IMG/VR virus record: IMGVR_UViG_3300007643_000052
Span: 1 to 36,166 of that record
Strand: one strand, 5' to 3'
Source of the DNA: a virus
Lineage: Duplodnaviria; Caudoviricetes
DNA: 36,166 nt
A program made the position numbers and the translations under genes. Position 1 is the stretch's first letter, and each line of letters opens with the position of its first letter. The notes under the pieces were generated by a model that was not told the origin of the DNA, made no database searches, and worked only from the letters and a program-made list of their open reading frames with translations. Below are positions 3,118-33,163 of this stretch, in pieces.

Positions 3118-3153
3118 TTTTAAATCCTTATCAGAGTAGTAAATGAGCCAGTA

Positions 3154-3185
3154 AAAGCCTACCCCGTGAATTAACACGGGGCAAG
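3154..3185 (-). promoter_or_regulatory. Repeated promoter/operator element, copy 2 (TTGCCC-17-TAGGCT), palindromic spacer
   Basis: Inverted repeat CCCCGTG-AATTAA-CACGGGG at 3162-3181 spans the spacer and overlaps the -35. Confidence 0.65.
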
Positions 3186-7940: not shown

Positions 7941-8326
7941 TGGGTAAACCTGCCCCCTATAACTCGAAGCAGCTCACTCAGCATCTACGCGACCTGCTGG
8001 CCCAGGCCCACACCATGACGCTGGAGGGGGAGTACCAGACCAAGGGCGAGGCCTTGGTTGACCTTGTCATGAAGGAAGCGTTGGGTTGGGAGGAGAGCAT
8101 CGTCAATGATGAGGGTACGGAGATCAAGTCGGTTCACAAGCCGCAGCGGTGGGCGATCGAGTTGGTGTGGGACCGCATGGAGGGTAAGACGCCACAGTCT
8201 CTCGACCCCGGCGAGACCAAGATGACCGCCAAGGATACGGTCAAGGCCTTGGCCGTTGCACGGCTCAGTGCGTTGACCGCCGAGACTGTTGGCGAAGCGA
8301 AGAAAGGACCGCCGCCCCTTGCCTAA
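7940..8326 (+). CDS. terS: Putative terminase small subunit
   Basis: Directly upstream of and overlapping TerL; helical; AIELVWDRMEGKTPQ motif typical of TerS-like proteins. Confidence 0.6.
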   Translation: MGKPAPYNSKQLTQHLRDLLAQAHTMTLEGEYQTKGEALVDLVMKEALGWEESIVNDEGTEIKSVHKPQRWAIELVWDRMEGKTPQSLDPGETKMTAKDTVKALAVARLSALTAETVGEAKKGPPPLA

Positions 8327-10244
8327 CGCCTTCGCAAACCAGCCGGTGCTCCTCGACAGCTTCCCCCGCAAGCTGACGGTGTGGCACGACCCGATCTCTG
8401 GCATAGACGTGCCGAAAGACCCCACGCAAAACTTGACGTGGCGTGCAGGCATGCTGGAGATGGCGGAGGACGACCCGGACTTGCAGCTTGACCTGTACAC
8501 GGCGTGCTCCCAGTCGCTGCTTTTTTTCCTTAATGCGTTCGCGTTCACTCTGCGTATCTTCCAACCTGATGAAGTGACCGGCAAGAATGTGCAGGCGAAG
8601 AATGCTCACCTGCCGTTCGTGACTTGGGAGGTGCAGGATAAGCACTTGCTCCGCATCGAGAGTGCCATTGATAATGGCGAGGATCTGCTCACAGACAAGT
8701 CGCGTGACATGGGTGCTACCTGGGACCACATCGCCGTGTACGCCCACCGCCTACTGTTCCGAAGCAGTGAGACCCACCTGATGATTTCGCGTAAAGAAGA
8801 CGCGGTTGACCAGTTGGATGGACGCCCGAGCAACTACCCCAACGGCCCCCTGGCTGACCCCGGTACGCTGTTCGGCAAGCTCGACTACATCCTGTCTCGC
8901 CTACCCTCGTGGATGCTTCCGAACTTCAGCCGCAAGAAGCTCCACCTTGTGAACACGGACACCAGTTGCCGGGTCGACGGGGAGTCGGCCAATGCCAACG
9001 CGGGTTCGTCTGACCGGCGTACCTCCATTTTTCTCGATGAGATGGCTAAGATGGACGAAGGCGAATCCATCAAGCGATCGACTCGTGACGTTACTGCGTG
9101 CCGCCTTCCGTGTTCGACGCCCAACGGTGCAGGCACTGCATACTCCAAGTGGCGTATGAGTGGGACTATACCTGTGTTTATCCTGGCGTGGTGGGAGCAC
9201 CCTGAAAAGGGGTTGGGACGCACCACTGTGTACGACGAAGAGGTCGAACGGTGGTTCATCACGTCACCCTGGTACGCTAACGAAAAAGAACTGCGGTCAC
9301 CGAAGGAACTGGCGATTGAAGTGGACATGGACCACGTCGGTTCCGGCGACACGTTCTTTGAGGGCGTCGTGATCGAGCAGCACAAGCTCATGTTCGCTAA
9401 GCCTCCGCTGTCGAAGTTCAATATCAATTTCAAGAAAGCTGTGACAGACGCCGAGGTGCCCGCGGTGTTACAGCGTCGGCAGCTTAATAAGGTATCGGCC
9501 CGGCCGTCCGTCAAGGGTAAGTGGTCATGTTGGGCAGCCCTACCCACCGGGAGGCTCGACCAGACAAAGACGTATACGGTGGCGTGTGACATAGGGAAAG
9601 GCCAGGGGGCCTCGAACAGCACGGTTACTGTGATGTGTAACGAAACCCGGCAGAAGGTCATGGCGTACGCTGACGCGAACACGCCACCCTATGAGTTCGC
9701 AAAGACTGTGGTAGCCGCATGTCTGTGGGTCGGGGGACGCGACCGCCCCCTGCTGATCTGGGAGAACAACGGTGACCCCGGGTTCGACTTCGGCAATCAG
9801 GTCGTACGCACATATCAGTACCCAAACATTTACTTTGATCGTCAGGTGGGCACGCTCAGCCAGAAGACCGGCAAGCGGTTTGGCTGGCGGTCCAGCCGTG
9901 AGCAGAAGGCAGAGGCCCTCGGCATCCTGCGGCGTGCGTACGCCCACGGCCAGTTCACCAACCCTGATGAGGCGGCACTCAACGAGGCGTTGCAATACAT
10001 CACGTACGATAGCGGGGGCATCGGCCCCGCAGTGTTGGTGGAGGAAACCGCGGAAGCTCGCAAGACCCACGGTGACCGGGTGATCGCAGACATGCTTGCG
10101 GTCCTAGCCCGGGAGGGTAAGGGGCTCCGTAAGCCAGGGGCCCAGCCCGACGCGGGGGGTCGGTCGTTTAAACATAGGTTCGATGCCCACAAGAAACGAA
10201 GGCACGCCGGAAAAAGTGACCGCTTCGACTTCACCGCCGCATAA
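8319..10244 (+). CDS. terL: Terminase large subunit
   Basis: Walker A DKSRDMGATW, Walker B SIFLDE, STPNG coupling motif, RNase H-like ACDIGKG and HGDRVIA; TTG start after AAAGGA. Confidence 0.93.
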   Translation: MPNAFANQPVLLDSFPRKLTVWHDPISGIDVPKDPTQNLTWRAGMLEMAEDDPDLQLDLYTACSQSLLFFLNAFAFTLRIFQPDEVTGKNVQAKNAHLPFVTWEVQDKHLLRIESAIDNGEDLLTDKSRDMGATWDHIAVYAHRLLFRSSETHLMISRKEDAVDQLDGRPSNYPNGPLADPGTLFGKLDYILSRLPSWMLPNFSRKKLHLVNTDTSCRVDGESANANAGSSDRRTSIFLDEMAKMDEGESIKRSTRDVTACRLPCSTPNGAGTAYSKWRMSGTIPVFILAWWEHPEKGLGRTTVYDEEVERWFITSPWYANEKELRSPKELAIEVDMDHVGSGDTFFEGVVIEQHKLMFAKPPLSKFNINFKKAVTDAEVPAVLQRRQLNKVSARPSVKGKWSCWAALPTGRLDQTKTYTVACDIGKGQGASNSTVTVMCNETRQKVMAYADANTPPYEFAKTVVAACLWVGGRDRPLLIWENNGDPGFDFGNQVVRTYQYPNIYFDRQVGTLSQKTGKRFGWRSSREQKAEALGILRRAYAHGQFTNPDEAALNEALQYITYDSGGIGPAVLVEETAEARKTHGDRVIADMLAVLAREGKGLRKPGAQPDAGGRSFKHRFDAHKKRRHAGKSDRFDFTAA

Positions 10245-10253
10245 GGAATCACT

Positions 10254-12128
10254 ATGCCACTTGACATAACACCAAAAAAGTTGCAGGAGCAGGTTCATCG
10301 GGGCATTAAGCGTCACGAGAATTTCCGCAACGCCCGCACCATGTTCCTGCGTAACTACGTTGGGCAGTACTACGACCAGACCAATGGGGACATCGGGGCG
10401 GAACCCCTCAACCTGATATTCAACGCCATCCGCGTGCTCATCCCCAACATCGTTATGAACTTCCCGACCCACAAGGTGTCGTCGAACTTCCTGTACGCCA
10501 AGGACTACGCTGAGCTTCTTGGCATGGCTTTGGAGCAGCAGGACAAACAGATCGGGATTAAAGACGTGTACCGTCGTGTGATTGTGGATGCCATCTTCAC
10601 ACTTGGCATCCTCAAGACCGGAATCGCTTCGAGCGACTCGGTCTATGCCATTGATGAGAGCGATCAAGTAGACACTGGTGAGGTGTACACTGAGTGTGTG
10701 GACTTCGACAACTTCATCGCCGACCCCATGAGCCGTGAACACCTGTTCAGGGATGCCTCGTGGTTGGGTGACCGCATGACGGTGCCACGCTCGACGCTGT
10801 TGGAGAGCGGGTTGTACGACAACGCATTAATAGAGCAGCTCCCTGCAGCAGGCGGCGACTTGAAGCAGAAGAAGGCCGCTTCGGCTATGTCCATGCGGAG
10901 CATCAACCCGCAGGATGACCTGGACCTGTTCGATGAAGTGGAGATCGCGGAACTGTGGGTACCCTCCGCCGGTGCCTTGGTCACGGTCCCCGCGTCCGAG
11001 CATGTCGTCTTTGATGAGTACCTCCGAGTGGACGAGTACTATGGCCCGGTAAGCGGCCCCTACACCTTCCTCGCCCTGACTCCGCCGGTGCCGGGCAACC
11101 CCATGCCGATCCCGATGGTGGGGATTTGGAATGACCTGCACGTATTGGCCAACCGTATGGCCAAGAAGATTGTGGACCAAGCCCAGCGTCAGAAAGACGT
11201 AATCGGATATAAGAGCCAAGCCGCGGACGACGCCCAGTCCCTCAAGGACGCGAGCGACGGCGAGGCCGTGGCCGTGGATGACCCGGATGCCGTCAAGGTT
11301 CACTCGTTTGGCGGGCAGCAGAACAGCAATGAAGTCCACATGTCACAGCTCCAGGGTTGGTTCAACCAGATGGCTGCGAACCCAGAGGGTATGGCGGGCA
11401 ACCGCTTCGACGCGGACTCAGCCACCGAGGCCTCCATCCTAGCTGAGCGTGCCAGCGTCGGGCTTGAGGACATGAAGGATCTGGTGTACCAGATGGCCGC
11501 GGACGAGGGCTCCAAGCGTGCGTGGTACCTCCACACTGACCCGTTCATGCGGCTCCCCCTGATCCGCCGCGTAGAGCTGCCTGCACAGTACGCACAGAGC
11601 CCGCAGGGCCCTCAGATGACACAGCCTGCCCAGTTGGCGGACCAGCAGATCATCCTGACGCCAGAAGCCCGGCGTGGGGATTATCTGGATTACACGTTCA
11701 TGATCGAGCCTGGGTCGATGGGTCGCCGGGACAGTGGGTCGCGTCTCGCGGAGGCGATGGACTTCGCGGTCAAGATCATGCCCGCCATCATGGCCACGGC
11801 ACAGAACGCCATGATGCTCGGCATACCCCTCGACGCCAAGGCCATGCTGATCCGCATGGCGAAGGACCGGGGGATTACCTGGATGCACGAGGTCTTGTTC
11901 GACCCTGAGTTCCAGATGAAGATGAACCAGCTCGCGTTGATGGGCCCCGCCCTTGCGGAGTCGAAGGGCATGCCCAATGCGGGCCTGGGCAGTGGCGGAG
12001 GTCAACTGGGGGCGATCCTCCAGAACGGCCAGCCCGGGCAAGTGCAGAAGGGTGCCCCAAGTCAGCAAAAACAACAGCGTCAAACCGCCCAGCAAGGGGC
12101 GAACGAGTCACAGTCACAAATGAGATAA
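10254..12128 (+). CDS. Portal protein
   Basis: 624 aa directly after TerL; G.LKTG, SATEA..L motifs and a Q-rich tail as in P22/T7-like portals. Confidence 0.85.
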   Translation: MPLDITPKKLQEQVHRGIKRHENFRNARTMFLRNYVGQYYDQTNGDIGAEPLNLIFNAIRVLIPNIVMNFPTHKVSSNFLYAKDYAELLGMALEQQDKQIGIKDVYRRVIVDAIFTLGILKTGIASSDSVYAIDESDQVDTGEVYTECVDFDNFIADPMSREHLFRDASWLGDRMTVPRSTLLESGLYDNALIEQLPAAGGDLKQKKAASAMSMRSINPQDDLDLFDEVEIAELWVPSAGALVTVPASEHVVFDEYLRVDEYYGPVSGPYTFLALTPPVPGNPMPIPMVGIWNDLHVLANRMAKKIVDQAQRQKDVIGYKSQAADDAQSLKDASDGEAVAVDDPDAVKVHSFGGQQNSNEVHMSQLQGWFNQMAANPEGMAGNRFDADSATEASILAERASVGLEDMKDLVYQMAADEGSKRAWYLHTDPFMRLPLIRRVELPAQYAQSPQGPQMTQPAQLADQQIILTPEARRGDYLDYTFMIEPGSMGRRDSGSRLAEAMDFAVKIMPAIMATAQNAMMLGIPLDAKAMLIRMAKDRGITWMHEVLFDPEFQMKMNQLALMGPALAESKGMPNAGLGSGGGQLGAILQNGQPGQVQKGAPSQQKQQRQTAQQGANESQSQMR

Positions 12129-12139
12129 GGAGACCCCCG

Positions 12140-12481
12140 ATGCCAGTTTACGAATACGAATGTGCGGCGTGTGGACATACGTCTGAGGAGTTTCAGTTCA
12201 TGCAGGACGACCGGCTGACCCAGTGTCCAGGGTGCTTGGATGAAACCTACGTCAAGCAGGTCAGCATGCCCCACACTGATATGAAGGCGTTCCGTAAGCC
12301 GATCGAGATGTACTCGGTCGCCTTGGACACCCCCCAGGAGATCGCGGATTTCAAGCGATCCTGCCCTGATATCGAGTGCGATGCCAACCTGAACAACGAG
12401 CTGGGGGGCATCCCCGTGGCCCACAACCGCAAGGAGAAGAAGCAGATCATGGAGGCGATGGGAGTCGTCGAACGAAAATAA
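12140..12481 (+). CDS. FmdB-family zinc-ribbon protein
   Basis: MPVYEYECAACGH...CPGC signature; AAGGAG RBS. Confidence 0.9.
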   Translation: MPVYEYECAACGHTSEEFQFMQDDRLTQCPGCLDETYVKQVSMPHTDMKAFRKPIEMYSVALDTPQEIADFKRSCPDIECDANLNNELGGIPVAHNRKEKKQIMEAMGVVERK

Positions 12482-12494
12482 CCCTAACAAACAC

Positions 12495-12522
12495 TTGACA
12501 AACACTTTTACCGTGGTATAAT
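12495..12522 (+). promoter_or_regulatory. Consensus sigma70 promoter TTGACA-16-(GTGG)TATAAT
   Basis: Perfect hexamers upstream of the scaffold and capsid genes. Confidence 0.85.
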
Positions 12523-12571
12523 ACCATAGTCCCTACCCTCATTTTTTTTGAGCAGCGACAGGAGAGAACCG

Positions 12572-13672
<1,101 letters not shown>

Positions 13673-13714
13673 TAACCCCGCCACCGACATAGGTGGCACT
13701 ACCGGAGTTTTACC

Positions 13715-14836
13715 ATGGGTGTATCCAACGCCGCTCTCGCCGACCTCATCAAAACCACGCTTGACGACTTGCCCAAGGGCCAGTTTGAAGTCATGTGGGA
13801 CAGCCAGAATTACGAATTTTGCCAGATTTACCAGAAGCACCGTCGTGGTGTTGACGGCGGCACTTCGATCACCCGTAATGTGGTCCTAGACCGCAACGGC
13901 CGTGCTCGCTACCGTCGCCTCTATGATACGGACAACCCGCAGGTTGACAACAACCAGCACACCATCAATGTGCCTTGGACCCAGCTTTCCACCGACTACT
14001 CGTGGGACGTGCTGGAGATCATGCGGAACAAAAACAGCTCCAAGGGCTTCATCAACCTGATGAAATCCCGCCGAGTTGAACGCATGTGGGACTTGGCTGA
14101 GCTGATCGAGGAGCGTGGTTGGCTAACCCCCACCTCCGCCACCGACACGCTCTTCCCGTACGGCATCCCGTACTACCTCAACTACCTGAACGACGGCGTG
14201 ACGGCAGCAGGGTTCTCGGGCCAGACTATTCGCTACCAGGGCGGCACCACGGGCACCATCTGTGCTGGTATCGACGCGGCTACTGAAGCCAAGTGGCGGA
14301 ACTACGCCGACGTTTACACCAAGGTGGACAACGACTTCTTGCGTAAGCTGCGGCTTGCCATCAAGCGTACTCGGTTCCGCCCAGCCCCGATCGTCGAAGA
14401 TCCGGGCCAAACGAAGGTCGGTTCGCCGATCAAGATGTACGGCTCTGACCAGTTGACTCTGGAATTGGAAGACCTCGCAGATAAGCGGGACGACAATACC
14501 ACACCTGTGGATCTTGCCAACAAGAACCTGCAGCACAGCTTCGATGGTACCGTGCAGTTCAACCGTATCCCCATTGTGTACATCCCCCAGCTCGACACCA
14601 TCACGGTGATCGATGGTGGCAGTAACTCGTTCTCCCCGGACCCCCTCTACTGCGTGGACTGGACCAAAATCCAGCCCATCGTGCAGGAAGGGTACTGGAT
14701 GGTTGAGTCGGAGCCCCTGACTGACCGTGGCCAACACACCACGTTCACCACGTTCCTCGACGGTTCTCACCAGAACCTCTGCATCAACCGCCGCACCGCG
14801 GGCTTCGTGATGCACAAGACCATCCCTGCTTCGTAA
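13715..14836 (+). CDS. Major capsid protein
   Basis: 373 aa after the scaffold; GGTSI..NV, W.NY and FNRIPIVY patterns; strong codon bias; followed by a terminator. Confidence 0.85.
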   Translation: MGVSNAALADLIKTTLDDLPKGQFEVMWDSQNYEFCQIYQKHRRGVDGGTSITRNVVLDRNGRARYRRLYDTDNPQVDNNQHTINVPWTQLSTDYSWDVLEIMRNKNSSKGFINLMKSRRVERMWDLAELIEERGWLTPTSATDTLFPYGIPYYLNYLNDGVTAAGFSGQTIRYQGGTTGTICAGIDAATEAKWRNYADVYTKVDNDFLRKLRLAIKRTRFRPAPIVEDPGQTKVGSPIKMYGSDQLTLELEDLADKRDDNTTPVDLANKNLQHSFDGTVQFNRIPIVYIPQLDTITVIDGGSNSFSPDPLYCVDWTKIQPIVQEGYWMVESEPLTDRGQHTTFTTFLDGSHQNLCINRRTAGFVMHKTIPAS

Positions 14837-17612: not shown

Positions 17613-19898
17613 ATGAGGAACCCCCTAACACTACGCTTTCCCGCTAAGGGCATTACCGAAGGCACACCCTATGGGGCAGTGCCTAACGGTTATACCACGG
17701 ACGCCTTGAACGTACGGCCCTTTGATGCCGAGGAGTCCCGCATGCGGGGGGGCCAGCGTCCGGGTACAGCCTTGTACCTCGCTGCTGCTGTGCAGGCCAG
17801 CACACCCATACAGCGGCTGGTACAGGGTGATATACCCACCATACCTGTATCTGGGGGCGGGGACACCCTCGTATTGTCAGATCCGTTCACGTACAGTGAC
17901 AACACGTCCATTGCCACGGCGACATCGTCTGCGTGGACGGCCTCTACCAGCACTGCGTTTGGAATCTCCAGCAATGCAGCCATCCATGATCGTGGCGGGA
18001 GCAACATTCAGCGAATCGCTTTGCTGGCTGCGGACCCGTTGTCAGGGGAGGCGAATTACTATGTACAGTGCAGTGTGGTACTAAGCACTGCTGACACACC
18101 CACAGACGGCGTGCGGGGGGGTGTGCGGTTCCGCGGGACAAGCAGCCTCGGGGACGGCCAGCTTTTGATGGAAGTGTTCTTGAAGGACTCTGGCAGTGGC
18201 GGGACAGCGGCGTCCCTCGTATTGAGCAACAGTGCCACGGGTTCCTCTACGGTTCAATTGGCGGCGGTTGATATTCCTGATGCCATAGCTATCCCTACGT
18301 CAGCGACGACCACAGCTTCGTTGGTTGTACGAGCAGAAGTAATTGGCAACACTATAAACGGGTACGTGAACGGCACCCAATACATCGCTACCTCAAGCAG
18401 CCTGTACGCCTCGCAAAGTGGGGTGGGGTTGGCCGCGGTTCGTACGGAGACCAGTGCGGCGGACGGGGATAACCCAGTTATCTGTGATGCGTTCACCTGC
18501 GGAACTGTGGTACCATCCACAGCGGGGGTCCGCACCCGGGAGACGTATCTTGTCGCAGTGGCGGGGGGTGACATCTACCAGTCTGATTCTCCGCCCACCG
18601 CCATGGTGGCCAGCACGGGGGGCACAGATGCCCTGAACTCCTCTACATTCCTGATGGGTGCGACGGGGGCCTCTCCTTCAGCGTTGGACGGCTCACCCGC
18701 GAACGTGCAGCGTCACGTATACTTCTGCGATGGTACGAACTACAAGCGGCTAAATTTAGAGACCAATACAGTATCGACCTGGACAGCCGTTAATGGTACA
18801 CTGCCCGTGGACAGTGCAGGGAATGTCTGCCGCATCATGGCCCTGTATCGCGGGCGTATCGTCATGGCAGGGCTGATAACCGAGCCGGGTAACTGGTTTA
18901 TGACGAAGCAGCATGATCCTCTTGACATAGATTACAGCCCCGCTACACAACTTGTCACGTCGGCTGTTGCGGGGAACAACACGGATGCGGGCCTCGTGGC
19001 GGATCGCATCACCGCCCTGATACCCTATGGTGATAATACGTTGATCTTCGGGGGTGATAAGAGCATCTGGCGTCTCACAGGCGACCCTGCGGACGGCGGC
19101 ATTATTGACAACATCAGCTATGATACAGGTGTGGCGGGGCCCGACGCTTGGACCCGCGACCCCAACGGGGTACTGTACTTCATGGGGAGTAACGGCATGT
19201 ACCGCATGGCCCCTGGTGGTGGGGTGCCTGAACTCATAAGCAGCGGAAAGCTGGACACTTCATTCACGGATATCGATCTCGTTACTACCCGACCCATTTT
19301 GTCGTGGGACCGAGACCGGCAAGGGTGCCACGTATTTTTGACGGGATACAACGAGCCCCTCACCGCCCCTACTCAGTATTGGTATGATGCACGTACGGAC
19401 GGCTTCTGGCCTGAGCAACTCCCGATAAGCAACGGACCCACTGCCGCGTTGGTGTTCGACGGCGATGCCCCGGGCGATCGAGCACTCCTGATGGGTGGCC
19501 GCGACGGGTATATCCGCACAGAATCAGACACCACTAAGAGTGATAGTGATGGAGCCACCACGACGGCGATAGACAGCTTCGTGGACATAGGACCGCTGGT
19601 AGGTAAGTTCGGCCGTCGCATACATCTCCAGGGTATCCAAGCCACGCTAGGTGCTGGGGCTGATGGTGCAACGCTCCAAGTTATGTCTGGGGACACCCCA
19701 GAGCAGGCGGCGGACTCTGTGACCGTACGGGCGGCTCGGGCTCTCAGCGGCGGGCTGAACAAGTGGGTGTACAACCCCGTGGCGGCAGGGTCTTTGAAGG
19801 TGCGGTTGCGGAACAACACGATCGCAGAGGCGTGGTCAATGGAACAGGTGGTAATACAGGTGGCCGATGGCGGGCTCCAACGTGAAGGGGCTAGATAG
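17613..19898 (+). CDS. Tail nozzle/stabilization protein (P22 gp10 or T7 gp12-like beta-propeller)
   Basis: NVRP...RGGQRPG N-terminus; YRGRIVMAG, ITALIPY..LIFG...IWRLTG and LYFMG..G.Y blades. Confidence 0.75.
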   Translation: MRNPLTLRFPAKGITEGTPYGAVPNGYTTDALNVRPFDAEESRMRGGQRPGTALYLAAAVQASTPIQRLVQGDIPTIPVSGGGDTLVLSDPFTYSDNTSIATATSSAWTASTSTAFGISSNAAIHDRGGSNIQRIALLAADPLSGEANYYVQCSVVLSTADTPTDGVRGGVRFRGTSSLGDGQLLMEVFLKDSGSGGTAASLVLSNSATGSSTVQLAAVDIPDAIAIPTSATTTASLVVRAEVIGNTINGYVNGTQYIATSSSLYASQSGVGLAAVRTETSAADGDNPVICDAFTCGTVVPSTAGVRTRETYLVAVAGGDIYQSDSPPTAMVASTGGTDALNSSTFLMGATGASPSALDGSPANVQRHVYFCDGTNYKRLNLETNTVSTWTAVNGTLPVDSAGNVCRIMALYRGRIVMAGLITEPGNWFMTKQHDPLDIDYSPATQLVTSAVAGNNTDAGLVADRITALIPYGDNTLIFGGDKSIWRLTGDPADGGIIDNISYDTGVAGPDAWTRDPNGVLYFMGSNGMYRMAPGGGVPELISSGKLDTSFTDIDLVTTRPILSWDRDRQGCHVFLTGYNEPLTAPTQYWYDARTDGFWPEQLPISNGPTAALVFDGDAPGDRALLMGGRDGYIRTESDTTKSDSDGATTTAIDSFVDIGPLVGKFGRRIHLQGIQATLGAGADGATLQVMSGDTPEQAADSVTVRAARALSGGLNKWVYNPVAAGSLKVRLRNNTIAEAWSMEQVVIQVADGGLQREGAR

Positions 19899-20686
19899 TG
19901 GGCCAGGAGATCGGACTAAAGGGCGTGTCCCGCCTGCCGAGTGACGGCCTTCCTGCGGAGCTTCGTAGGCAGTGGGAGCGGCTCACCCGGACGCACCAGT
20001 GGGTCGGTGGAGCAGATAACGCTATCCAGATCGTTAACGGCATCATTAAGTTGGTCAGTGCAACCGGGGAACCCGTCGATCAGACGAACGGTGAGTTCGT
20101 TATCCTGCTGGACGGTGCCACGTTGACAAAGAGTGCTTCGGGGCTTAAGATATCCGATGATGGCGTGGGTGCGGATCAGCTTGGTATCCTGACCACGGAG
20201 GGTGATCTCCTCACTTTTTCAACTGAGCCAGTTCGGCTGGGTGTCGGGGCGGATGGCACAACACTGATCGCTGACAGCGGGGAGACCACAGGGCTGCGGT
20301 GGGCGGAAGTCAGCGGACTGCTTGACCGAGAGACCACGGAACAGGACAGTGGGTTTCTGGAGATAAATAACACGGCGGTGCGTGAGATTACGGTAGCCTT
20401 TGGGGCCTTACCGAACAACACCACGACCAATGTGGCCCACGGCATAACTGGGTTGGTGCTGACTGAGATGGTGGAGGTGCGGGGATGGTGTTCTAATGGC
20501 ACCACCGTGCGGCCACTACCTTGGACTGACGGAACAAACGCGATCGCAATTGAGGTGAACGCCACAAACGTGTCGATCACAACGAACTTCGACGCGTCAG
20601 GCTACACGTCCTGCGATGTGTTCCTGCGGTACACTAGAGGCAACAGCGGCTTCTCTTCGGGCTTCTCTTCTGGATTTGGAGCATAG
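19898..20686 (+). CDS. Tail fibre/appendage-like protein
   Basis: TTEGDLL...RLGVGADG..L.ADS..TTGL.W fibre motif, VAHGI domain and FSSGFSSGFG end. Confidence 0.7.
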   Translation: MGQEIGLKGVSRLPSDGLPAELRRQWERLTRTHQWVGGADNAIQIVNGIIKLVSATGEPVDQTNGEFVILLDGATLTKSASGLKISDDGVGADQLGILTTEGDLLTFSTEPVRLGVGADGTTLIADSGETTGLRWAEVSGLLDRETTEQDSGFLEINNTAVREITVAFGALPNNTTTNVAHGITGLVLTEMVEVRGWCSNGTTVRPLPWTDGTNAIAIEVNATNVSITTNFDASGYTSCDVFLRYTRGNSGFSSGFSSGFGA

Positions 20687-20687
20687 C

Positions 20688-21215
20688 ATGGCTGATACGT
20701 CAAGAACTAAATCGGCACTGGCAACAATACTCGCCGACAATACAGCGGGGGACATTTCCCCCCAGGATCTACGCGACCTCATGGAGTCGTTGGATGTGCC
20801 ATACGGGGAGCTGTACCAGACAGGCAACTCCACCAACACTACTGATGGTGCAGCCCTGCTGGGCACGTTCACCCTCGGAACAGCAAACCAGATGGACAAG
20901 CCCTCGGCATCACGTCTTCGGTACACTGGCGCCCCGACCCGTAAGTTTATGATAACTGCGGCCGTCGTTGACAACACCGAGGGATCTGGGGATATCAGCC
21001 ACAAGCTGACGATTGCGAAGAATGGCACGAAGGACACCAAGACATCAGTGGTGTACGACCACATCGATGCCGTGTCGAAGAGTACGACGGTCCAGGGTAT
21101 AATTGAACTGGCGACTAACGACTACGTTGAAATATGGTATGATGACAATTCTGGATTTGCGGTGAGTGGAGAGTTCCTCTCCTGCCACATACTTGCTCAC
21201 GGGTTGTTCGGATAA
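20688..21215 (+). CDS. Virion protein with a C1q/TNF-like C-terminal domain
   Basis: LADNTAGDISPQDLRD N-terminus; L.YTG and LATNDYVEIW motifs; GGAG RBS. Confidence 0.7.
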   Translation: MADTSRTKSALATILADNTAGDISPQDLRDLMESLDVPYGELYQTGNSTNTTDGAALLGTFTLGTANQMDKPSASRLRYTGAPTRKFMITAAVVDNTEGSGDISHKLTIAKNGTKDTKTSVVYDHIDAVSKSTTVQGIIELATNDYVEIWYDDNSGFAVSGEFLSCHILAHGLFG

Positions 21216-21226
21216 GGATTAGCAAA

Positions 21227-21790
21227 ATGATAGGCAACGCATACAAACAATACGGCACACAATCTTCACGCAGCACCCGCGTATCCAGCACGAGGTCTAC
21301 TGGTGGCCTCAGTGCAAATTATTTGGCCAAGCAGGCCGCTAAGGCCTCCCAGTCCGCCCGGGCTGATTCGCTGTCGCAGTACAAGTCTCTGATGGATTCG
21401 GCCAAGCAGACGACGGACAATACCCGCGGGCTGAATCAGCAGGCCCAGGCGGCAGCAGCCTCTGTTGGTGAGCAGGCGAAGGTGCGGGCTGGCCAGCACA
21501 ACGAGCAACAGCTTGCTAAGTCTCAGCAGTCCCTGGTATCTCGAGGTCTGGGAAACACCACTATAGCAGGTGCAGCCAGCCGGGGCATCAACGCTGACTA
21601 CGCCCAGAACCTGGGCAACATTGACGAACAGCAGGCCAAGCTGCGTTCTGGTTTGCTAACACAGGCCGCGGGTGCAGAAATGGCCCTCGGGAACTTCAAT
21701 GCTGATGCAATCCTGAGCCGCCAGAACGTCGGCCCGGACCTTGGCATGTACAGTAGCCTTCTCCAGTCCTTGTCCGCAGGAGCGTTTTAA
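21227..21790 (+). CDS. Putative internal virion (ejection) protein 1
   Basis: A/Q/S/G-rich helical protein with an SRGLGNTT motif; located after the tail genes. Confidence 0.65.
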   Translation: MIGNAYKQYGTQSSRSTRVSSTRSTGGLSANYLAKQAAKASQSARADSLSQYKSLMDSAKQTTDNTRGLNQQAQAAAASVGEQAKVRAGQHNEQQLAKSQQSLVSRGLGNTTIAGAASRGINADYAQNLGNIDEQQAKLRSGLLTQAAGAEMALGNFNADAILSRQNVGPDLGMYSSLLQSLSAGAF

Positions 21791-22813
21791 ATGCCCGCAC
21801 CTCGCCCCATCACGATCGACTACACACCGGCAAGCTCGCTTCTTCAAGCATCTATCGCCGCGGGGCAGATGCAGGGAGACCGTCAGCGTAACGCCATCCA
21901 ACGGGAGCAACAGCAGCGGCAGCCGCAGCGTCCCTCTTTCGCAGCAGCCGCCAACAGGCGACAAGGAATTTCCGCCGCTGATTCTGCTATGCGTCTGCAG
22001 CGTGCTGGTGCCCAGACGTTCCGCAATCCTGCACTCAACGCCCCGATGTCCGGTGCGGATAAAGAAATCCGAAACCCCCTGGGCGGCAGCATCCGCGGTC
22101 GTATGTCCCAGGGCACCGGTAGCATGACCGGGGATGGCCATACGTACGACATCAACGACGCGTCGAGCATGCCTGCTGGTGCAGACCGAGGCGGCGGCTT
22201 CTCTCAGTTCGAGGACACCCAGGTGGGTGAAAACGGGTACCTTGACACCATAATGCAGCGTCCCGGTTTACCAGACCAGACCATGCGTGAGCTTGAGACT
22301 CTGCGTACGTCAGGCCTCACACCGAACCAAATGCGTACGGCCGCGGACTCGATCATCCGCAATACCGCTGGTGCGAAAGACGCGTTCTCTCCGAAGGATA
22401 AAGTTAAGTTTGAGATGAGCAATCTTGACAGCCAAATCAGTGACCTGCGGCGTCAGGAGCAGGCGTTGCTCAAAGAGATGGGTGAGTCGGACCAAGACCC
22501 GGACGCATCGTCAGCAGGCCTCACCCCTGATGCCCGCCCCACCGGCGGCTCCATCAACGAGTTCTGGCGTGGTGCTGCGGACACGGTCCTGCCGGGCCAG
22601 CCGTTCTCCAGCGTATCCCGTGGCGGTGACTCCGATAAATTGAAGCGTGCGGTCAAGCTGGCTCAGCTACGGCGTCAGCAACAGTTGCTCGTAGAGCAGC
22701 AACGTGGTATGATGCAGGGTGGGTCCGGGCCGCAGGACGTACAGCCCTTGGACAACGTGGACGTATCGACGCTTAGTAACGACGACCTATTCAAAGCCTT
22801 GATGGGGAACTGA
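21791..22813 (+). CDS. Putative internal virion (ejection) protein 2
   Basis: Low-complexity Q/G/A coiled-coil protein; lies between ejection-like genes. Confidence 0.6.
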   Translation: MPAPRPITIDYTPASSLLQASIAAGQMQGDRQRNAIQREQQQRQPQRPSFAAAANRRQGISAADSAMRLQRAGAQTFRNPALNAPMSGADKEIRNPLGGSIRGRMSQGTGSMTGDGHTYDINDASSMPAGADRGGGFSQFEDTQVGENGYLDTIMQRPGLPDQTMRELETLRTSGLTPNQMRTAADSIIRNTAGAKDAFSPKDKVKFEMSNLDSQISDLRRQEQALLKEMGESDQDPDASSAGLTPDARPTGGSINEFWRGAADTVLPGQPFSSVSRGGDSDKLKRAVKLAQLRRQQQLLVEQQRGMMQGGSGPQDVQPLDNVDVSTLSNDDLFKALMGN

Positions 22814-22817
22814 GACC

Positions 22818-25800
22818 ATGCCAACTCGTGAAGACGCCCTAGCCGAACTGTCCCGCCGAGCCTCCAGCGGAGAGCTGTCATCTAAACAGCAGGCGGCATT
22901 TGGCGAGCTGCAAAAGCGGGGGGTCATACCCACTGCACAGAAGACATCGGCAGTCTCCCCGTCGATTCAGAAGATGCTCACCGACTCAGGCTACGAAGGT
23001 GCGGAGCGTTTGGCGAACACAGGCATCACCCCCGGGACGGCTTCTGAATTTGCCGTTGCCCACATGCAGGCAACTGAGAAGCGTACCGGCCGACGTCCTG
23101 ATCCGAAGCAGATGGAAGCCGCCAACAACATGTTCAAGGGCATGGCTGGTCGTGAAGATCGTACTGATGTGGACCAGTTCCAGGAGCAGCTCAAGAGTCA
23201 GCGTGACTCCCGTAACGAGACGGCCGTGGGCCGGGCATCGAACGTGGGCCTTAACTTCGTGCAAGGTGTCGCTCGACCCAGCACAGCCGTTATCGGTACT
23301 GTCGCTCCTGGGTACGCCGCGGATCTGCGGGAGCAGCAGCAACAGGCGTACAACCCGAGTGGTGGGTTCAGTGGTGTCGTAGGTGGTGGTCTCGCTGAGG
23401 GTGCGAACCTCGCGGCTTCCTTGGCCATGGGTCCAGCCGGAGTCGTTGGGTACTACGGTGCTCAGGGTACCGGCAGTGCCCGTACGGACATAGCAGAGCG
23501 GCGGGCGGCTGGCCAAGAAATCAGTGGTGGCATGGAGTTTGCCTCCGCGTTGGCCCAGGGAACGGTCGAGGGGCTTAGTGGGCTAGTTGGTGGTCGGATC
23601 GTACAGTCACTCGGACGGTATGCACGACCCCTCGCCGCTGAAGCGTCGGAGGCCGGTAGCCGCAGGCTCATACAAGCCGCCACCCGCGAAGCTGGGCTAG
23701 TGCTCGGTGAGGGTGCGGAGGAGGCCGTTACCGAAATAGTTCAGAACGCCATCAAGCAGAAAAGCTACGACCCGGAAGCCGGGCTCATGGACGGGGTCGC
23801 CGAGGCATTCGCCATGGGCCTAGTGCTCGCCCCCGTGGGCGGGGCCCTGGTTGGCGGGGCAACGGGCGGTAAGAAGGCCCCGGCCCCCTCCCCCGCCGTC
23901 GTAGTGGCAGAGCAACATGCGGAGGTTAAGCACGCTCACCGCCTGTCTGCTGATGAACTGGGCCGCAGGACGGGCACACTCGATGCTGATACCGAAGGTG
24001 AAGTAGAAGGCAACCAGTACTTCCAGCGTGGGCAGATGGGTTCTGCCGAAGGTGGAGACGGTGACTGGGTCAAGGTGACCATACCCCTAGACCAGTTGAC
24101 GGCGTCCCCCCGATCCGGTACGCGGGTTGACGGGTACGCCGGGCAGACTGCGGACACAGCACCGCCACTGGTAGCCGGTATCATGAAGGAGGGCGACGGG
24201 AGCATCGAGATTATCGACGGCAACAACCGCCATGCTGCGGCGATTGCCCGTGGAGACACGACGGCGGAGGTCTACGTGCCCGACGCTCTCGCTCGCCGGT
24301 TCCAGCCCCTGGGCCTCCCTTCGCCCCTGGACATCGCTCAGCGAGAGCTGGGGGACGCGGAGACAGCCGTGGACAGGGCCCAGCAGGATCTGCAGACCGC
24401 GGCCGGTCCAAGTGCGGGGGCAATCCAGGTGGACCCCTCCGGCCGTGCAGGCACAGACCTGGAGCATGACGCCCTGAACAAACAGGCCTCAGCCGCCATC
24501 AAACCACAGTACGACCCAGCCCGCCTCCTTCCTGATAACGCTCCCCGCTTTTCCGCGGATGAGGACGGGTCCGTGTCTGACAACCGTGTCGAGGAGAAGC
24601 GTAGCATCGGCCTGCGTGAAGGACGCCAGCGTGTCGATGACTTGACTGAAGCGGGTAAGATGCGGGAGGCTAAGAAAGAAATCGAACGCCTTAAGAAGGA
24701 AGCCCGTACGGACCCGCTTACCCGCATAGGTAACAAGCGTGCTTTTGACGAGAAGATAACCAAGCTCAAGGCCACGGTGGAAAAGACCGGTCGGTCACGC
24801 AAGGTCGCGTTCTTCGACCTGGGCAACCTCAAGGTGGCCAATACGATACTTGGACACGAGGGTGCGAACAGCCTGTTGGTATCCATAACGAAGAAGGCCG
24901 AGAATGCACTAAAGGGCCGTGCGGATATCTTCCGTACCGGTGGAGATGAGTTCATCGTCGTGCCCAAGCGGTCCATGAACGAGAAGCAAACACGTCAACT
25001 CGTCGCTGAAGTCGAAGCTGCGGTCGGCCACCAGGACTTGGTCCCGGGGAAGGTGTCCGCGTTCATCGCTGGGGATGTGGCGACACTGGAGCCCGGCGGC
25101 ACCGTTGCAGAAGAGCTTGACGCTGCAGACAAACGAAGCGAAGGCCGTAAGTCAGAGATAAAACAAAAACGTGGTGAGACCACCACCCGGGCAGAGGCTG
25201 AGGTTGCTGTTGCAGAGTTCCAGCAGGGCGTTGTAACACACTCTGATTCGGTGACGGTGACTAGTGCTGTGGACTCAGCTCGACGCAACCCCGAGGCTGT
25301 TCTACGCGTGCGTGAAGCGAACGCTAACCTGCGGGCCAAGCGTCGTGCGGTACAGCAGCTCCGTGGCCAAGGCGAGCTGTCGAGGCTGGTCGCTGAGTAC
25401 AAAAAATCCACAGCGTTGGACCAGGGTACCAAGCCTCACTACAAGCCGATCTCCCCCGCTGAAGGCCGGAGCATATCGCGTGCATACGAAACGATGCAAC
25501 ACGATCCTACCAACCCTGATGTCATCCTCGCTTACGAATCGTTTAAGAAAGAAACACTCGATCAGTTCTTGGCCCTGCAAGACGCTGGGTTCACTTTTGA
25601 TCTCCGTCCTGTGCTGTCGGTAGCGGAGCTGTACCCTTCCGTTACGGAGCTGGCCACGGACGTGCTGGCCAACAAGAGCCTCAGTGTGAACGCGGACCCC
25701 GGCGACATGCCGTCAGACCACCCGATGGCCCAAGAGGTCGGCCCGCTCGCCCCAGGGTGGACGCACAACCAAGTGTTCCGAGCTGTTCATGATGTCATAG

Positions 25801-28163
25801 GGCACGTCAACCAGGGCCACGCGTTCACGATTGAGGGCGAAGAGAACGCATGGCGGGACCACTCGACGACGTACTCGGACGCAGCGAAGGGGGCTCTTGC
25901 CACCGAGACACGCGGTCAGTCTTCTTGGGTTGGCTACGGCCCGCATGGAGCTGTGAACAGGAAGGCGGTCGCTGAGGATAGGATCGAAGACGTCACATTC
26001 CCTGGGCAGAAAGCCGGGCTCCTGCCGGAGCAATACTGGACGGCCCCCGGGACGGAAGCTGCCGCGGCACCTGTCACCGATCCTGATGTGTTCATCCAGG
26101 CTGTGGCCCCCGGCATCGAACGCATTCCTGGCAAGAGCCGTGTCAAAGAGGGTATCAGCCGCGTGGGTGTACCCGTGTCAGCAGTGCTGCGTAACTGGTC
26201 CCCGCGTCTCTACGGTAAGCTCAAGACCCTGCAGGCACGGTACAAGGCCGAGCGGCATGATGCGGACACCCAGGTGCAGAACATGACACGTCAGCTTAAC
26301 GCTGTGCTTGATCGTAGGCAACGCCTTGAGTTTGACTACGCCGTGTCCACGCAGGACTTCGACACCGCCCACAACATGCTACGGGAAGCTGACCCTACCA
26401 AAGCCGAAGACGTGTGGCAGCAGTTCGAGCTTGTTCAACGCATGAAGGACAACGTCTACGCTGAGGCCAAGGGCATCGGCATGAAGATCGGCTACCGCCA
26501 GCAGCACATGCCGCGGGCCATGAAGCCGGGTGCGTATGACTCGTGGTACGAAGCACGTCACGGCGTGGAGCCCGACGAGCTGCAACGTGCCCTGGCTGAG
26601 GAATCCAGACGCTTAGGACGTGACCTCACTGATACTGAGAAGGTCCATCTTGCGAACCAATGGTTGGCCGGTTGGAATCCCCGCAAGCCTGGGCAGACCA
26701 CACCACGCATCGCTGGCCTGCGATCAGTGGACGACCTCACGATCGAAGAGTTTCAAAAGTTCTACCAGCCGCTAGACCAAGCATTGTTCTCATACTTTGA
26801 CCGTATGATCTACAATGTACATAAGGCTAAGTTGTTCGGTAAGGATGTGGGTGAAGAGTCACTTGACCAGACCATCGGCCGTATCATGATCGACCAGAGC
26901 CACGGCATTGACCGGCTCAACTCGCACCAGAAACGTCGCATGCGGTCCATTATAAATAGCATCTTCACAACTGGCGAGCAGTCCCCGGCTAAGGCCCTGC
27001 GGGCTATCCGCGACCTCGGTTACATGGGTACGTTGCTTGACCCCTCGTCCGCAGCCATCCAGTTCGGCGATCTGGCCATGGTGGCCGCTCGTGACGGCGT
27101 CGGTCAAGCCCTGAAGTCCATACCAGCGTCTATGCGTGAGACGGTACTCACTGCCAAGAACCTGGGACTTCAACACATTAGTGCCGAGTACGGTGCCCCG
27201 GGTGCCCTGACGAAGGCCCTCAACCGCGGGTTCAAGGTCGTAGGGTTCACCAAGGTGGACACCGCCATGAAGACAGTGAACATGGTGTCGTCGTTCCAGA
27301 AGGCCCAACGCCTACTGAAGAATCCTGATAGCAAAGCGTACCGTGCGTGGGAGCAGCAGTGGGCCCCCGTGTTCGGTGAAGCAGAGTTCGCTGACCTTAA
27401 ACGCGACCTGTCCACTGGCCTGAAGTCAGACCTCGTGACCACATATGCCTACATGGACCTCAGCGAGACGCAGCCGATCGACATGCTGGAGATGCCACAG
27501 TATTACTTGGATCACCCCAACGGCCGGGTCATGTACCAGCTCAAGACCTTCGCCCTTCGCCAGTTCGGATTCATCCGTGGACGGGCCTACGACAAGATCG
27601 CAAAGGGCGTTCGCAACAGCGACTACAAGATGGCGGGGGCAGGCCTGCGGGAACTCGTGCAGATCCTGATGATGCTGAGCCTGTCAGGGATGACGTTCGA
27701 TATGATCCGCGATTGGATCACCGGCAAGAACGTTAACCCGCGTGACTCGTTCGTTGATGGTCTGCTGGCCACTCACCTTGGCTCAACGTACCTGCTCGAC
27801 AATGCTTCAAGTGACGGCCCCGGCTCAGCCGCAGTGGACTTCCTCACACCGCCCGCAGTCGGCATGGTGAACCGCATGACGAAGGACGCGATGCGGGGTG
27901 AGTACAAGTCTCTCAAGTATCTGCCGTTCGGTAAGATGGTCTATGGGTGGACACCTTCCGGCCAAGCAGAGGTAGCCAAGTACGGCCGCAAAGACGTGCT
28001 GTCGGCTGCCAGCTCCGCTTATGCGGACGGGGACAGGGCCGCGGCGTCAACGTACGTTAAGGCGTTCAACGACGCAATGAAATCAGAGGGCCGCGAGGAG
28101 CGGCTCACAATGTCATCGGTGCGGCAGTCTGCTGCTCGCCGCAACAAGGAGGATAAGAAATGA
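22818..28163 (+). CDS. Large polyvalent internal virion protein with ParB-like, GGDEF and HDxxGH domains
   Basis: 1781 aa; G/A-rich membrane-like N-terminal region (EGAEEAVTEIVQN); IIDGNNR; TDPLT..N.RAF...GGDEF; FRAVHDVIGH; helical C-terminus (YLDHPNGRVMYQLKTF). Confidence 0.85.
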   Translation: MPTREDALAELSRRASSGELSSKQQAAFGELQKRGVIPTAQKTSAVSPSIQKMLTDSGYEGAERLANTGITPGTASEFAVAHMQATEKRTGRRPDPKQMEAANNMFKGMAGREDRTDVDQFQEQLKSQRDSRNETAVGRASNVGLNFVQGVARPSTAVIGTVAPGYAADLREQQQQAYNPSGGFSGVVGGGLAEGANLAASLAMGPAGVVGYYGAQGTGSARTDIAERRAAGQEISGGMEFASALAQGTVEGLSGLVGGRIVQSLGRYARPLAAEASEAGSRRLIQAATREAGLVLGEGAEEAVTEIVQNAIKQKSYDPEAGLMDGVAEAFAMGLVLAPVGGALVGGATGGKKAPAPSPAVVVAEQHAEVKHAHRLSADELGRRTGTLDADTEGEVEGNQYFQRGQMGSAEGGDGDWVKVTIPLDQLTASPRSGTRVDGYAGQTADTAPPLVAGIMKEGDGSIEIIDGNNRHAAAIARGDTTAEVYVPDALARRFQPLGLPSPLDIAQRELGDAETAVDRAQQDLQTAAGPSAGAIQVDPSGRAGTDLEHDALNKQASAAIKPQYDPARLLPDNAPRFSADEDGSVSDNRVEEKRSIGLREGRQRVDDLTEAGKMREAKKEIERLKKEARTDPLTRIGNKRAFDEKITKLKATVEKTGRSRKVAFFDLGNLKVANTILGHEGANSLLVSITKKAENALKGRADIFRTGGDEFIVVPKRSMNEKQTRQLVAEVEAAVGHQDLVPGKVSAFIAGDVATLEPGGTVAEELDAADKRSEGRKSEIKQKRGETTTRAEAEVAVAEFQQGVVTHSDSVTVTSAVDSARRNPEAVLRVREANANLRAKRRAVQQLRGQGELSRLVAEYKKSTALDQGTKPHYKPISPAEGRSISRAYETMQHDPTNPDVILAYESFKKETLDQFLALQDAGFTFDLRPVLSVAELYPSVTELATDVLANKSLSVNADPGDMPSDHPMAQEVGPLAPGWTHNQVFRAVHDVIGHVNQGHAFTIEGEENAWRDHSTTYSDAAKGALATETRGQSSWVGYGPHGAVNRKAVAEDRIEDVTFPGQKAGLLPEQYWTAPGTEAAAAPVTDPDVFIQAVAPGIERIPGKSRVKEGISRVGVPVSAVLRNWSPRLYGKLKTLQARYKAERHDADTQVQNMTRQLNAVLDRRQRLEFDYAVSTQDFDTAHNMLREADPTKAEDVWQQFELVQRMKDNVYAEAKGIGMKIGYRQQHMPRAMKPGAYDSWYEARHGVEPDELQRALAEESRRLGRDLTDTEKVHLANQWLAGWNPRKPGQTTPRIAGLRSVDDLTIEEFQKFYQPLDQALFSYFDRMIYNVHKAKLFGKDVGEESLDQTIGRIMIDQSHGIDRLNSHQKRRMRSIINSIFTTGEQSPAKALRAIRDLGYMGTLLDPSSAAIQFGDLAMVAARDGVGQALKSIPASMRETVLTAKNLGLQHISAEYGAPGALTKALNRGFKVVGFTKVDTAMKTVNMVSSFQKAQRLLKNPDSKAYRAWEQQWAPVFGEAEFADLKRDLSTGLKSDLVTTYAYMDLSETQPIDMLEMPQYYLDHPNGRVMYQLKTFALRQFGFIRGRAYDKIAKGVRNSDYKMAGAGLRELVQILMMLSLSGMTFDMIRDWITGKNVNPRDSFVDGLLATHLGSTYLLDNASSDGPGSAAVDFLTPPAVGMVNRMTKDAMRGEYKSLKYLPFGKMVYGWTPSGQAEVAKYGRKDVLSAASSAYADGDRAAASTYVKAFNDAMKSEGREERLTMSSVRQSAARRNKEDKK

Positions 28164-32289: not shown

Positions 32290-33161
32290 AGTGCATTCTC
32301 TCCTATAGTGGTTAGGTTACCGTCAGCCCCCAAGAGGCACACGTCGAGCTTGAGCCACTTGGCTAATCGCACCTCGGCGGAGGCCCCCGCACTCCTTGAC
32401 CACCCGGGTAGCACAACGACGCAGTCAGTCCCGGGGTCCAGGCTCATGAGAGCCATGACGTCACGGTACACGAACTCGGCCTGACACGCAGGGGTGTCTG
32501 CTTCCTCGGGAGTTACCGTCCCGCTGGCTCGGTCGATGTCCGCCGGGCTGATGACGTTGAAGCCCTGCCTGCACAGCGTGTCTCTTGCCTTATCGAACGC
32601 AGGGAAGTTGAAGTGTTCCACGCCCCGCATCGGCCCTGATATGTACATCGTGGGGCATTCCGCATTACGTTTCCCGCGGTGAGGCACGCTCGTGCCTGCA
32701 AGTATTAGGTCGATGACCTCGCGTCGGCAACCCAGCTCCTCCAGCGTTACGCGGCGTAGCTTCTCCTGCTCCCCCCTCAGCCGCAGCCACGGGGGGGCGT
32801 GGCTGCCCGGGCGGGGGTCAACGAATGGTGCCACAGATCTGGTAGGTCCACCGACAGTTGTCTTATTACACCCGGCCTTCTCACACTCGGTCTGCAACAA
32901 CGCCAGGGCACGCCATGCGACCTTAGCGGAGTGCTTCATCCCATCGTCGTCAAGTGTGCCACGATCGGCGAGGTGGCGTATGATACAGTCCGCGTGGTCC
33001 GTGGATTTCTCCCGGGCCCAGTGCATCTCCTCACCAGGGTTGTGCTGCTCATTGCTTACGTGGCTTACATGAGCCACAGCCGCGAGGGCATCGGGGAAGT
33101 AGTCGAGCAGGCCCCGGGCCATCGGTGTGTTCTTACGTGTTTCTTTGTCTGTAGGTAACAT
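32268..33161 (-). CDS. dATP/dGTP diphosphohydrolase (DUF5664) fused to DUF4406
   Basis: YFPDALAAVAHVS...QHNPGE.MHW.R.KS.DHADCI.RHL...H.AKVAWRALA; then YISGPMRG..HFNFPAF...ISPA...LPGWSRS.GA.AE. Confidence 0.85.
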   Translation of the reverse strand: MLPTDKETRKNTPMARGLLDYFPDALAAVAHVSHVSNEQHNPGEEMHWAREKSTDHADCIIRHLADRGTLDDDGMKHSAKVAWRALALLQTECEKAGCNKTTVGGPTRSVAPFVDPRPGSHAPPWLRLRGEQEKLRRVTLEELGCRREVIDLILAGTSVPHRGKRNAECPTMYISGPMRGVEHFNFPAFDKARDTLCRQGFNVISPADIDRASGTVTPEEADTPACQAEFVYRDVMALMSLDPGTDCVVVLPGWSRSAGASAEVRLAKWLKLDVCLLGADGNLTTIGENALWPSTNH

Positions 33162-33163
33162 GC

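Follow-up and report, generated by a model that had tools for sequence, protein, structure and literature searches.

A sensor-less GGDEF domain with asparagine at its base-reading position in a putative ejection protein of a tailed phage

Why would a tailed phage place a nucleotide cyclase domain in a protein that it probably carries in its particle? The question is raised by a 36-kb linear virus contig of an uncultured, short-tailed phage, estimated to be 77% complete (IMG/VR record IMGVR_UViG_3300007643_000052, positions 1 to 36,166; this whole stretch of 36,166 nucleotides is called the window below, and coordinates refer to its plus strand unless marked (-)). The final large gene of its virion operon, an open reading frame (ORF) at 22818..28163, encodes a giant polyvalent protein of 1781 amino acids, which fold and gene order make a putative T7-gp16-type (tetrameric) ejection protein. 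A GGDEF domain occupies approximately residues 632-790 (24711..25187). The answer that we favour, tentatively and with slightly less than even confidence, is that the sequence encodes a cyclase free of sensor and of feedback, which is likely delivered to the cytoplasm and would make mainly cyclic di-GMP (c-di-GMP) from GTP.

The initial annotation, which described a genuine GGDEF domain here and proposed comparison with PF00990, PleD and GacA, is upheld by both comparisons. The Pfam GGDEF profile (PF00990) matches residues 630-735 (E 1.4e-14; score 54.6 bits, cut-off 23.8), the single GGDEF match of the whole record. Modelled with AlphaFold2, residues 610-796 reach a mean pLDDT (predicted local distance difference test) of 94.3, and the matches that Foldseek lists for the model are all GGDEF proteins, headed by SiaD (E 3.5e-12), DgcB and WspR, with PleD and GacA lower. 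The motifs quoted at first all lie in the frame of the ORF, TDPLT from residue 631, FFDLGNLKVANTILGHEGAN from 665 and GGDEF at 708-712 (24939..24953). Metal-binding, catalytic and phosphate-binding residues are all present: the canonical D667 (metal), K672, N675 (sugar-edge base contact; 24816..24842 for the three) and G708-F712 are intact, in agreement with the claim that the metal Asp, the Lys and the equivalent of PleD N335 are kept. K778 and K782 form a basic pair in the C-terminal helix (25149..25163), recognised by clade conservation, with a phosphate-binding role that we take over from PleD. With G786 they carry the conserved part to about 25190, and the span first given, 24660..25170, is right in location and too short at its C-terminal end. 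Ahead of the domain, residues 610-631 (24645..24710) form in the model a leader helix with the heptad register M615, A618, I622, L625 and A629 before the DxLT turn; by alignment this is the register of DgcB, and the helix is a predicted dimerisation element. Where the RxxD motif of the inhibitory site (I-site) would be expected, the protein reads K699-G-R-A702 (KGRA; 24912..24923), as the claimed absence of RxxD had it. Judged by its residues, the GGDEF domain looks catalytically intact, with neither sensor nor I-site.

Its relatives argue in the same direction. Residues 405-1111, searched against 1.84 billion representatives, gave 65,674 matches, of which the best 150 were listed, with GGDEF in 16 of the 149 other proteins. 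A profile of the domain found 1300 short proteins, of which the 120 best were looked at. In a quick tree built from 95 rows, with 26 of 74 distant rows used and L011 omitted as a near-copy, there is a 61-member group (SH-like approximate likelihood ratio, SH-aLRT, 94) that unites 13 fused and 48 stand-alone domains. The stand-alone set consists of the top 46 profile matches and two proteins added via the tree, mostly of 160-220 amino acids with a short leader, the domain and no sensor; an N-terminal hydrophobic helix is seen in 18 of the 47 that were checked. Contigs of 42-77 kb carry 16 of 46, none being on a longer contig, and phage replication or recombination genes neighbour them in all five loci checked. 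The clade is apparently phage-borne, by extension from those loci. The stand-alone genes (P0170-P0215; L006:2771-3361, L011, L067, L068, L071; ~48 proteins of ~190 amino acids) sit in replication modules and have a coiled-coil or membrane anchor. Of two single-sequence searches for domain relatives, one returned the query and two distant matches and the other confirmed 0 of 10 stretches, and a pattern scan of limited reach across bacterial and archaeal genomes confirmed 0 of 11.

Mean pairwise identity in the clade is 43% and 9 of 161 columns are invariant. D667, N675, G679, G708, G709, D710, E711 and K778 are present in 61 of 61 rows and K782 in 60, while leader positions -3/-7/-10/-14/-17 are hydrophobic in 48/60, 43/59, 53/59, 45/58 and 46/58 members, so that the heptad pattern is conserved at the sequence level and the dimer predicted from it. 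Random decay of the catalytic residues in homologues, named at the outset as grounds for abandoning the idea, is not seen at D667, N675, G679, GGDE or K778. Purifying selection on the active site is shown by the aligned sequences across the clade, and the invariance of the catalytic columns argues for a family of active enzymes. A clade signature, D-x-A/G-N-L-K, replaces D-x-D-x-F-K. RxxD is found in four of 61 clade rows and none of the 13 fused ones, against 57 of 72 distant GGDEFs, and the I-site loop is often three residues shorter in stand-alone members. The missing I-site, which the initial annotation had linked to injection, is thus real as an absence and loses its value as a mark of an injected enzyme, being a clade-wide trait common to stand-alone phage genes. 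Other fused GGDEFs fall into two or more further tree groups, from which it follows that fusion occurred repeatedly. Giant phage proteins of 1600-4300 amino acids with GGDEFs of other lineages are found in L024, L030, L051, P0042, P0050, P0071, P0075, P0109, P0166 and P0169, some with Zeta-toxin-like, ART or LPD22 domains adjoining the GGDEF.

The product depends on the residue that reads the Watson-Crick edge of the base, D344 in PleD, where it reads guanine (PMC9140294), and S348 in GacA. The query has Asn684 there (codon AAC, 24867..24869), as had been claimed: it lies opposite Asp in five of five printed alignments with solved GGDEF domains, and the GacA spacings are matched exactly (Y304-S348 and K640-N684, both 44; N339-S348 and N675-N684, both 9; S348-D374 and N684-D710, both 26; numbering as found in PMC6456294). 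Its Lys640 (24735..24737) takes the cross-dimer base-stacking place that is held by Arg in canonical enzymes and by Tyr304 in GacA; of 60 clade rows, 25 have Arg there, 20 Lys and 15 another residue. Of the 61 clade members, 58 have Asp at position 684 and three have Asn, namely the query, P0005 and P0190, the last with Asn in two records of its cluster. Since Asp is so prevalent, in P0004 and P0053 of the query's own group as well, the ancestral state reads guanine. All 72 distant rows have Asp, and 56 distinct GGDEF domains in the retrieved loci, four of them read by eye, comprise 53 with Asp and one each with Asn, Thr and Ser; the fused GGDEF of P0166, outside the clade, has Asn. With position 684 masked in the tree, the approximately unbiased (AU) test rejects one origin for the three clade carriers (p-AU 0.001) and does not reject a shared origin for the query and P0005 (p-AU 0.455), which places the number of origins within the clade, on the sequences, at at least two. 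A single origin was accordingly discarded, as was the idea that Asn is the specificity signature of the family, with three carriers in 61. The initial suggestion that Asn signals altered specificity is thereby weakened: the residue is a minority variant in a family whose default is guanine-reading. The change itself takes one transition (GAC to AAC), and A669G is seen solely in two Asn carriers.

Several observations on this position stand apart from the query. A 4219-amino-acid LPD38 polyvalent phage protein (L021:7706-20362, also L019) combines the GGDEF motif with Thr at the base-reading position; by sequence its GGDEF has the Hypr signature and is a better candidate than the query for synthesis of 3',3'-cGAMP (cyclic GMP-AMP). 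Two GGDEFs of viral contigs have Ser (L049:1163-1639, 159 amino acids, stand-alone) and Asn (L058/L060:9332-10465, 378 amino acids). A nucleotide-metabolism gene with dGTP_diPhyd_N and DUF4406 domains lies at 32268-33203 (-) and is kept in L003, L004, L007 and L010. It prompted the thought that Asn reads 2-aminoadenine, which was rejected, as those four Asp-bearing loci share the gene and no PurZ was recognised.

Delivery of the domain is suggested by the all-helical, gp16-hub-like scaffold that follows it (residues 1098-1781; 26109..28160). The C-terminal 684 residues were modelled with a pLDDT of 61. Foldseek matches this model best to chain 8vb2_A of the PhiM1 ejectosome (E 1e-3; TM 0.22), and VIA re-alignment of 450 chains ranks T7 9jyy_I first (Z 6.2), E1004 9vvp_W second (Z 5.3) and 8vb2_A fourth (Z 5.2), these three gp16-type chains superposing weakly, with root-mean-square deviations of 4.4-5.8 over 199-242 residues. 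One of six aligned members matches phrog_342, an internal virion protein (E 0.0015); a profile search of solved-structure sequences gave no match. Each signal is weak, yet they agree, and the modelled fold shows a faint but steady likeness to T7-gp16-type ejection proteins, with residues 1119-1497 aligned to T7 gp16 516-884. A hydropathy scan finds a sole strongly hydrophobic helix, residues 327-345 (23796..23852), N-terminal to all cassettes and a candidate inner-membrane segment. T7 gp16 and PhiM1 gp48 form tetramers in the virion, and a cytoplasmic location is given for gp16-C (411-1118) (passages of PMC11440229 and PMC8954989). The cassettes of the query are plausibly cytoplasmic because they lie between the hydrophobic helix and the part aligned to gp16-C.

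Gene order agrees with this reading. Genes for terminase, an SU10-type portal and the major capsid protein (8289..14836), assigned by weak PHROG or Pfam matches (E 5e-3, 2e-6 and 3e-4), belong to the same operon. Between them and the giant gene lie a 761-amino-acid gene, small genes and genes of 187 and 340 amino acids (17613..22813). Searched as a profile, the 761-amino-acid protein gives a β-propeller signal (E 6e-4) and is probably the podoviral tail nozzle; the 187- and 340-amino-acid genes would occupy the gp14 and gp15 slots. The nozzle-like and 187-amino-acid genes also precede a large GGDEF-bearing gene in seven distinct related loci (L003, L004, L005, L007, L008, L010, L063), so that the order expected of a gp16-type gene, after the nozzle and two smaller core genes, is found in the window and seven relatives, the roles of the small genes being conjectural. 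Fold and order together sustain the early proposal of a probable virion-ejected protein.

On this basis the giant protein would be packaged in few copies as a core protein and ejected, as fold, gene order and the T7 and PhiM1 precedents suggest, and its position in the chain would leave the GGDEF cassette on the cytoplasmic side of the inner membrane. Adjacent copies may pair through their coiled-coil leaders, two half-sites joining two GTP into c-di-GMP, in a cyclase that appears to lack both an input domain and a brake by its product. Asn684 and Lys640 are predicted to lower guanine fidelity without switching it. GTP use probably persists, Asn being as long as Asp and the sugar edge still being read by N675; some cGAMP is plausible because Asn can bond adenine N1. 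Passages of PMC6456294 report that a non-Asp base-reading residue is tolerated when combined with a GGDEF motif, the combination found in the query, and that more c-di-GMP is made by enzymes whose cross-dimer residue is basic (Arg); the query has Lys. The effect would be a rise of the host's c-di-GMP signalling that begins in the first minutes, with less motility and fewer pili, altered surface receptors and perhaps dampened toxin or immune switches, and the stand-alone relatives would do the same job from replication-module genes. There is precedent in the PB1-like YIP peptides, which raise c-di-GMP via YfiN and are argued thereby to cut motility and alter receptors (PMC8085984), and c-di-GMP can act as an antitoxin (review, PMC13375341).

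Several points weigh against this proposal. The fold match of the scaffold is weak (Z 5-6 and TM 0.22, for a helical protein modelled at pLDDT 61), and the upstream 340-amino-acid gene is below the 431-982 amino acids given for gp15-like proteins (PMC11440229/PMC8954989). The cassette is not essential, since 9 of 17 scaffold orthologues among the matches listed lack it; the eight that have it are a proportion biased upward by the query. The base-reading site is sensitive, D-to-S having killed four of five canonical enzymes (PMC6456294), and a literature search, partly off-target, found no test of Asn at this position. The number of injected copies is estimated at only about 4-6. In the query's well-supported six-member group (with P0004 and P0053, both Asp, P0005, Asn, P0066 and P0006), four deviate at key sites, two by D684N and P0066 and P0006 by K672G, an altered N639 and GGDEQ/GGDEI; in 10 of the 50 conserved columns the query itself differs from the consensus of the clade, and relaxed selection is possible on both counts. 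The changes in P0066 and P0006 may be diverged chemistry or decay; K672 is His in eight stand-alone rows.

How far Asn684 shifts the product separates the proposal of a mainly c-di-GMP-making enzyme from an unlikely alternative, in which Asn684 and Lys640 make the enzyme promiscuous, its chief product being 3',3'-cGAMP or another mixed dinucleotide and its role that of an injected decoy or jammer of nucleotide-based immunity. Asn, unlike Asp, can on chemical grounds donate a hydrogen bond to adenine N1; it arose at least twice with the catalytic set intact (single origin, p-AU 0.001); and unrelated phage GGDEFs have Asn (P0166, L058), Thr (L019/L021) or Ser (L049), against no non-Asp residue in 72 distant rows. 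The restriction of A669G to two Asn carriers points the same way, but the link is post hoc, two rare changes being common to 3 of 624 fused-by-solo pairs. S/N swaps alter products in the related mCpol fold, where Asn itself favours guanine (PMC12657218), and Hypr enzymes are defined by Ser/Thr (PMC9140294). Asn is found in just three of 61 members, and the query (P0001) and P0005 may share an origin (p-AU 0.455). Making cGAMP would moreover risk triggering the cyclic-oligonucleotide-based antiphage signalling system (CBASS) instead of blocking it, and no sponge, nuclease, or c-di-GMP or cGAMP riboswitch is recognised within the window. Nothing here directly supports an anti-CBASS role.

The deviations in the query's group lend themselves to a different explanation, also improbable, of a weakened or drifting enzyme that is slow, stops at linear pppGpG or only binds nucleoside triphosphates in an optional cassette, D684N being a tolerated loss of affinity. 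The analogous Asp-to-Asn change in GTPases lowers GTP affinity. The change is one transition, nine of 17 orthologues do without the cassette, the sisters P0066 and P0006 lost K672, and fused copies are 4-19 columns off the consensus compared with 0-9 in most stand-alone proteins (P0170-P0215). That last difference may merely reflect the dominance of stand-alone sequences in the consensus. The query retains all invariant catalytic and phosphate-binding residues and the heptad leader, and Asn recurs amid otherwise clean active sites (P0190, three deviations), which speaks against this explanation.

The small number of injected copies raises the rather more doubtful alternative that the enzyme is active and acts late, an unpackaged, late-expressed pool raising c-di-GMP while the injected copies are incidental. 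With a turnover of 0.05-1 per second, some 2-3 injected dimers would make about 30-900 molecules in five minutes, near or below ordinary cell levels, and the stand-alone relatives act only once expressed, among replication or recombination genes in five of five loci. Those modules are early or middle ones, suggesting an early need, and fusion in several lineages (three tree groups; giants L021, L024, L030, L051) is easiest to understand if delivery matters. Least expected, with the late pool, is a broader scheme that extrapolates from the sequences: phages would inject a ready cyclase whose base-reading residue is retuned by lineage (Asp to Asn, Thr or Ser) for cGAMP-type or non-standard dinucleotides at time zero. 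If it were true, such dinucleotides would act as decoys, jamming or replenishing the nucleotide pools of host immunity (CBASS, Panoptes-type guards), and Asn would be the third code for specificity that GGDEF enzymes use in nature.

The remainder of the giant protein is modular. Among the 17 scaffold orthologues, ParB-like, GGDEF and HDxxGH cassettes come and go independently, and the protein has the marks of a polyvalent protein, several unrelated exchangeable domains in a large late-gene product. A ParB/Srx-like cassette is weakly assigned to about residues 405-496 (24030..24305), the corresponding stretch of P0026 matching a ParB-like PHROG (E 0.0075), without a Pfam match. At about residues 855-1085 (25380..26072) lies a widespread phage cassette, carried by most of the best 150 of 65,674 matches, with invariant H-D-x-x-G-H...E and E-T-R-G-Q motifs (phrog_3170, E 2.6e-9) and no PDB or Pfam match; its zincin-like HDxxGH has Asp for the Glu of the MPTase hub motif HExxH/HExxxH. 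An autoprotease role freeing the cyclase is unsupported, as P0026, P0053, P0066 and P0136 have GGDEF without HDxxGH. No lytic domain was recognised in the giant protein. Elsewhere in the window, a stand-alone DUF7178 gene (2023-2631, (-)) has fused counterparts within the related giants P0013 and P0075, a second solo/fused exchange, and a faint Pfam match to S-adenosylmethionine lyase (2785-3177, (-); E 0.036, under the cut-off) marks a possible anti-restriction gene. None of 22 small ORFs matches an anti-defence Pfam family, and no Rfam family, c-di-GMP riboswitches included, reaches its gathering score in the window or the seven related loci. The capsid protein has no match among 50,697 phage records, and a pattern scan of limited reach in bacterial and archaeal genomes confirmed 0 of 104 stretches.

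GGDEF domains were already listed in polyvalent proteins of phages and prophages by Iyer et al. 2017 (PMC5512222), with interference in host nucleotide signalling or action against rivals proposed; since the idea dates from then, the surprise is limited. What is alike is the giant product of a late gene, in which a GGDEF is joined to cassettes of unrelated kinds, ParB-like and peptidase-like. The passages available from that study contain neither residue-level analysis nor experiment, whereas the query's scaffold is weakly linked to the gp16 type by fold, its GGDEF belongs to a defined clade with stand-alone members, and its base-reading residue is Asn. What is new here is the clade uniting fused and stand-alone forms, Asn as a recurrent minority variant, and the probable gp16-type scaffold. 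A literature search, part of which returned mostly irrelevant papers, found no experimental test of a phage-encoded GGDEF enzyme, and the available parts of PMC10118264, PMC11461919 and PMC7824862 hold nothing on such GGDEFs. The clade, with its 13 fused and 48 short, sensor-free stand-alone members, offers easy expression targets, and close relatives that have either Asp (P0004, P0053) or Asn (the query, P0005) at the specificity site amount to a natural experiment on the effect of Asn there.

With the canonical diguanylate cyclases PleD, WspR, DgcB and SiaD the query shares the fold, the DxLT turn, the coiled-coil register, the metal Asp, the Lys, the Asn, GGDEF and the C-terminal basic pair. 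It differs from them in lacking a sensor and RxxD, in D-x-G-N-L-K for D-x-D-x-F-K, in a C-terminal ExRKxxxKxxxG helix, in Asn for the guanine-reading Asp of PleD D344 and in Lys for the cross-dimer Arg. Like the Hypr enzymes GacA and Bd0367, as presented in passages of PMC6456294 and PMC9140294, it has a non-Asp base-reading residue, a non-Arg cross-dimer residue and a motif of the form GGDE[F/Y], not GGEEF; those enzymes have Ser/Thr instead of Asn, Tyr/Ser/Ala/Gln instead of Lys, a receiver domain and an I-site, which the query lacks. The Yuavirus 'diguanylate-cyclase GGDEF domain protein' and gp350 of Bacillus phage G are likewise phage-encoded and sensor-less, the former without RxxD; they are ~32% identical, stand outside a virion protein and, in Yuavirus, retain Asp. 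Like the query, T7 gp16 and PhiM1 gp48 (PMC8954989, PMC11440229) are encoded by the final large gene in the virion operon of a podovirus and contain inserted enzyme domains, and the helical hub is probably shared. In the accounts given there the inserts are wall-degrading enzymes; those of the query would handle nucleotides. Known phage strategies destroy or sponge host signalling nucleotides or switch on a host cyclase, as YIP does; a phage-made, virion-delivered synthase would be the reverse strategy.

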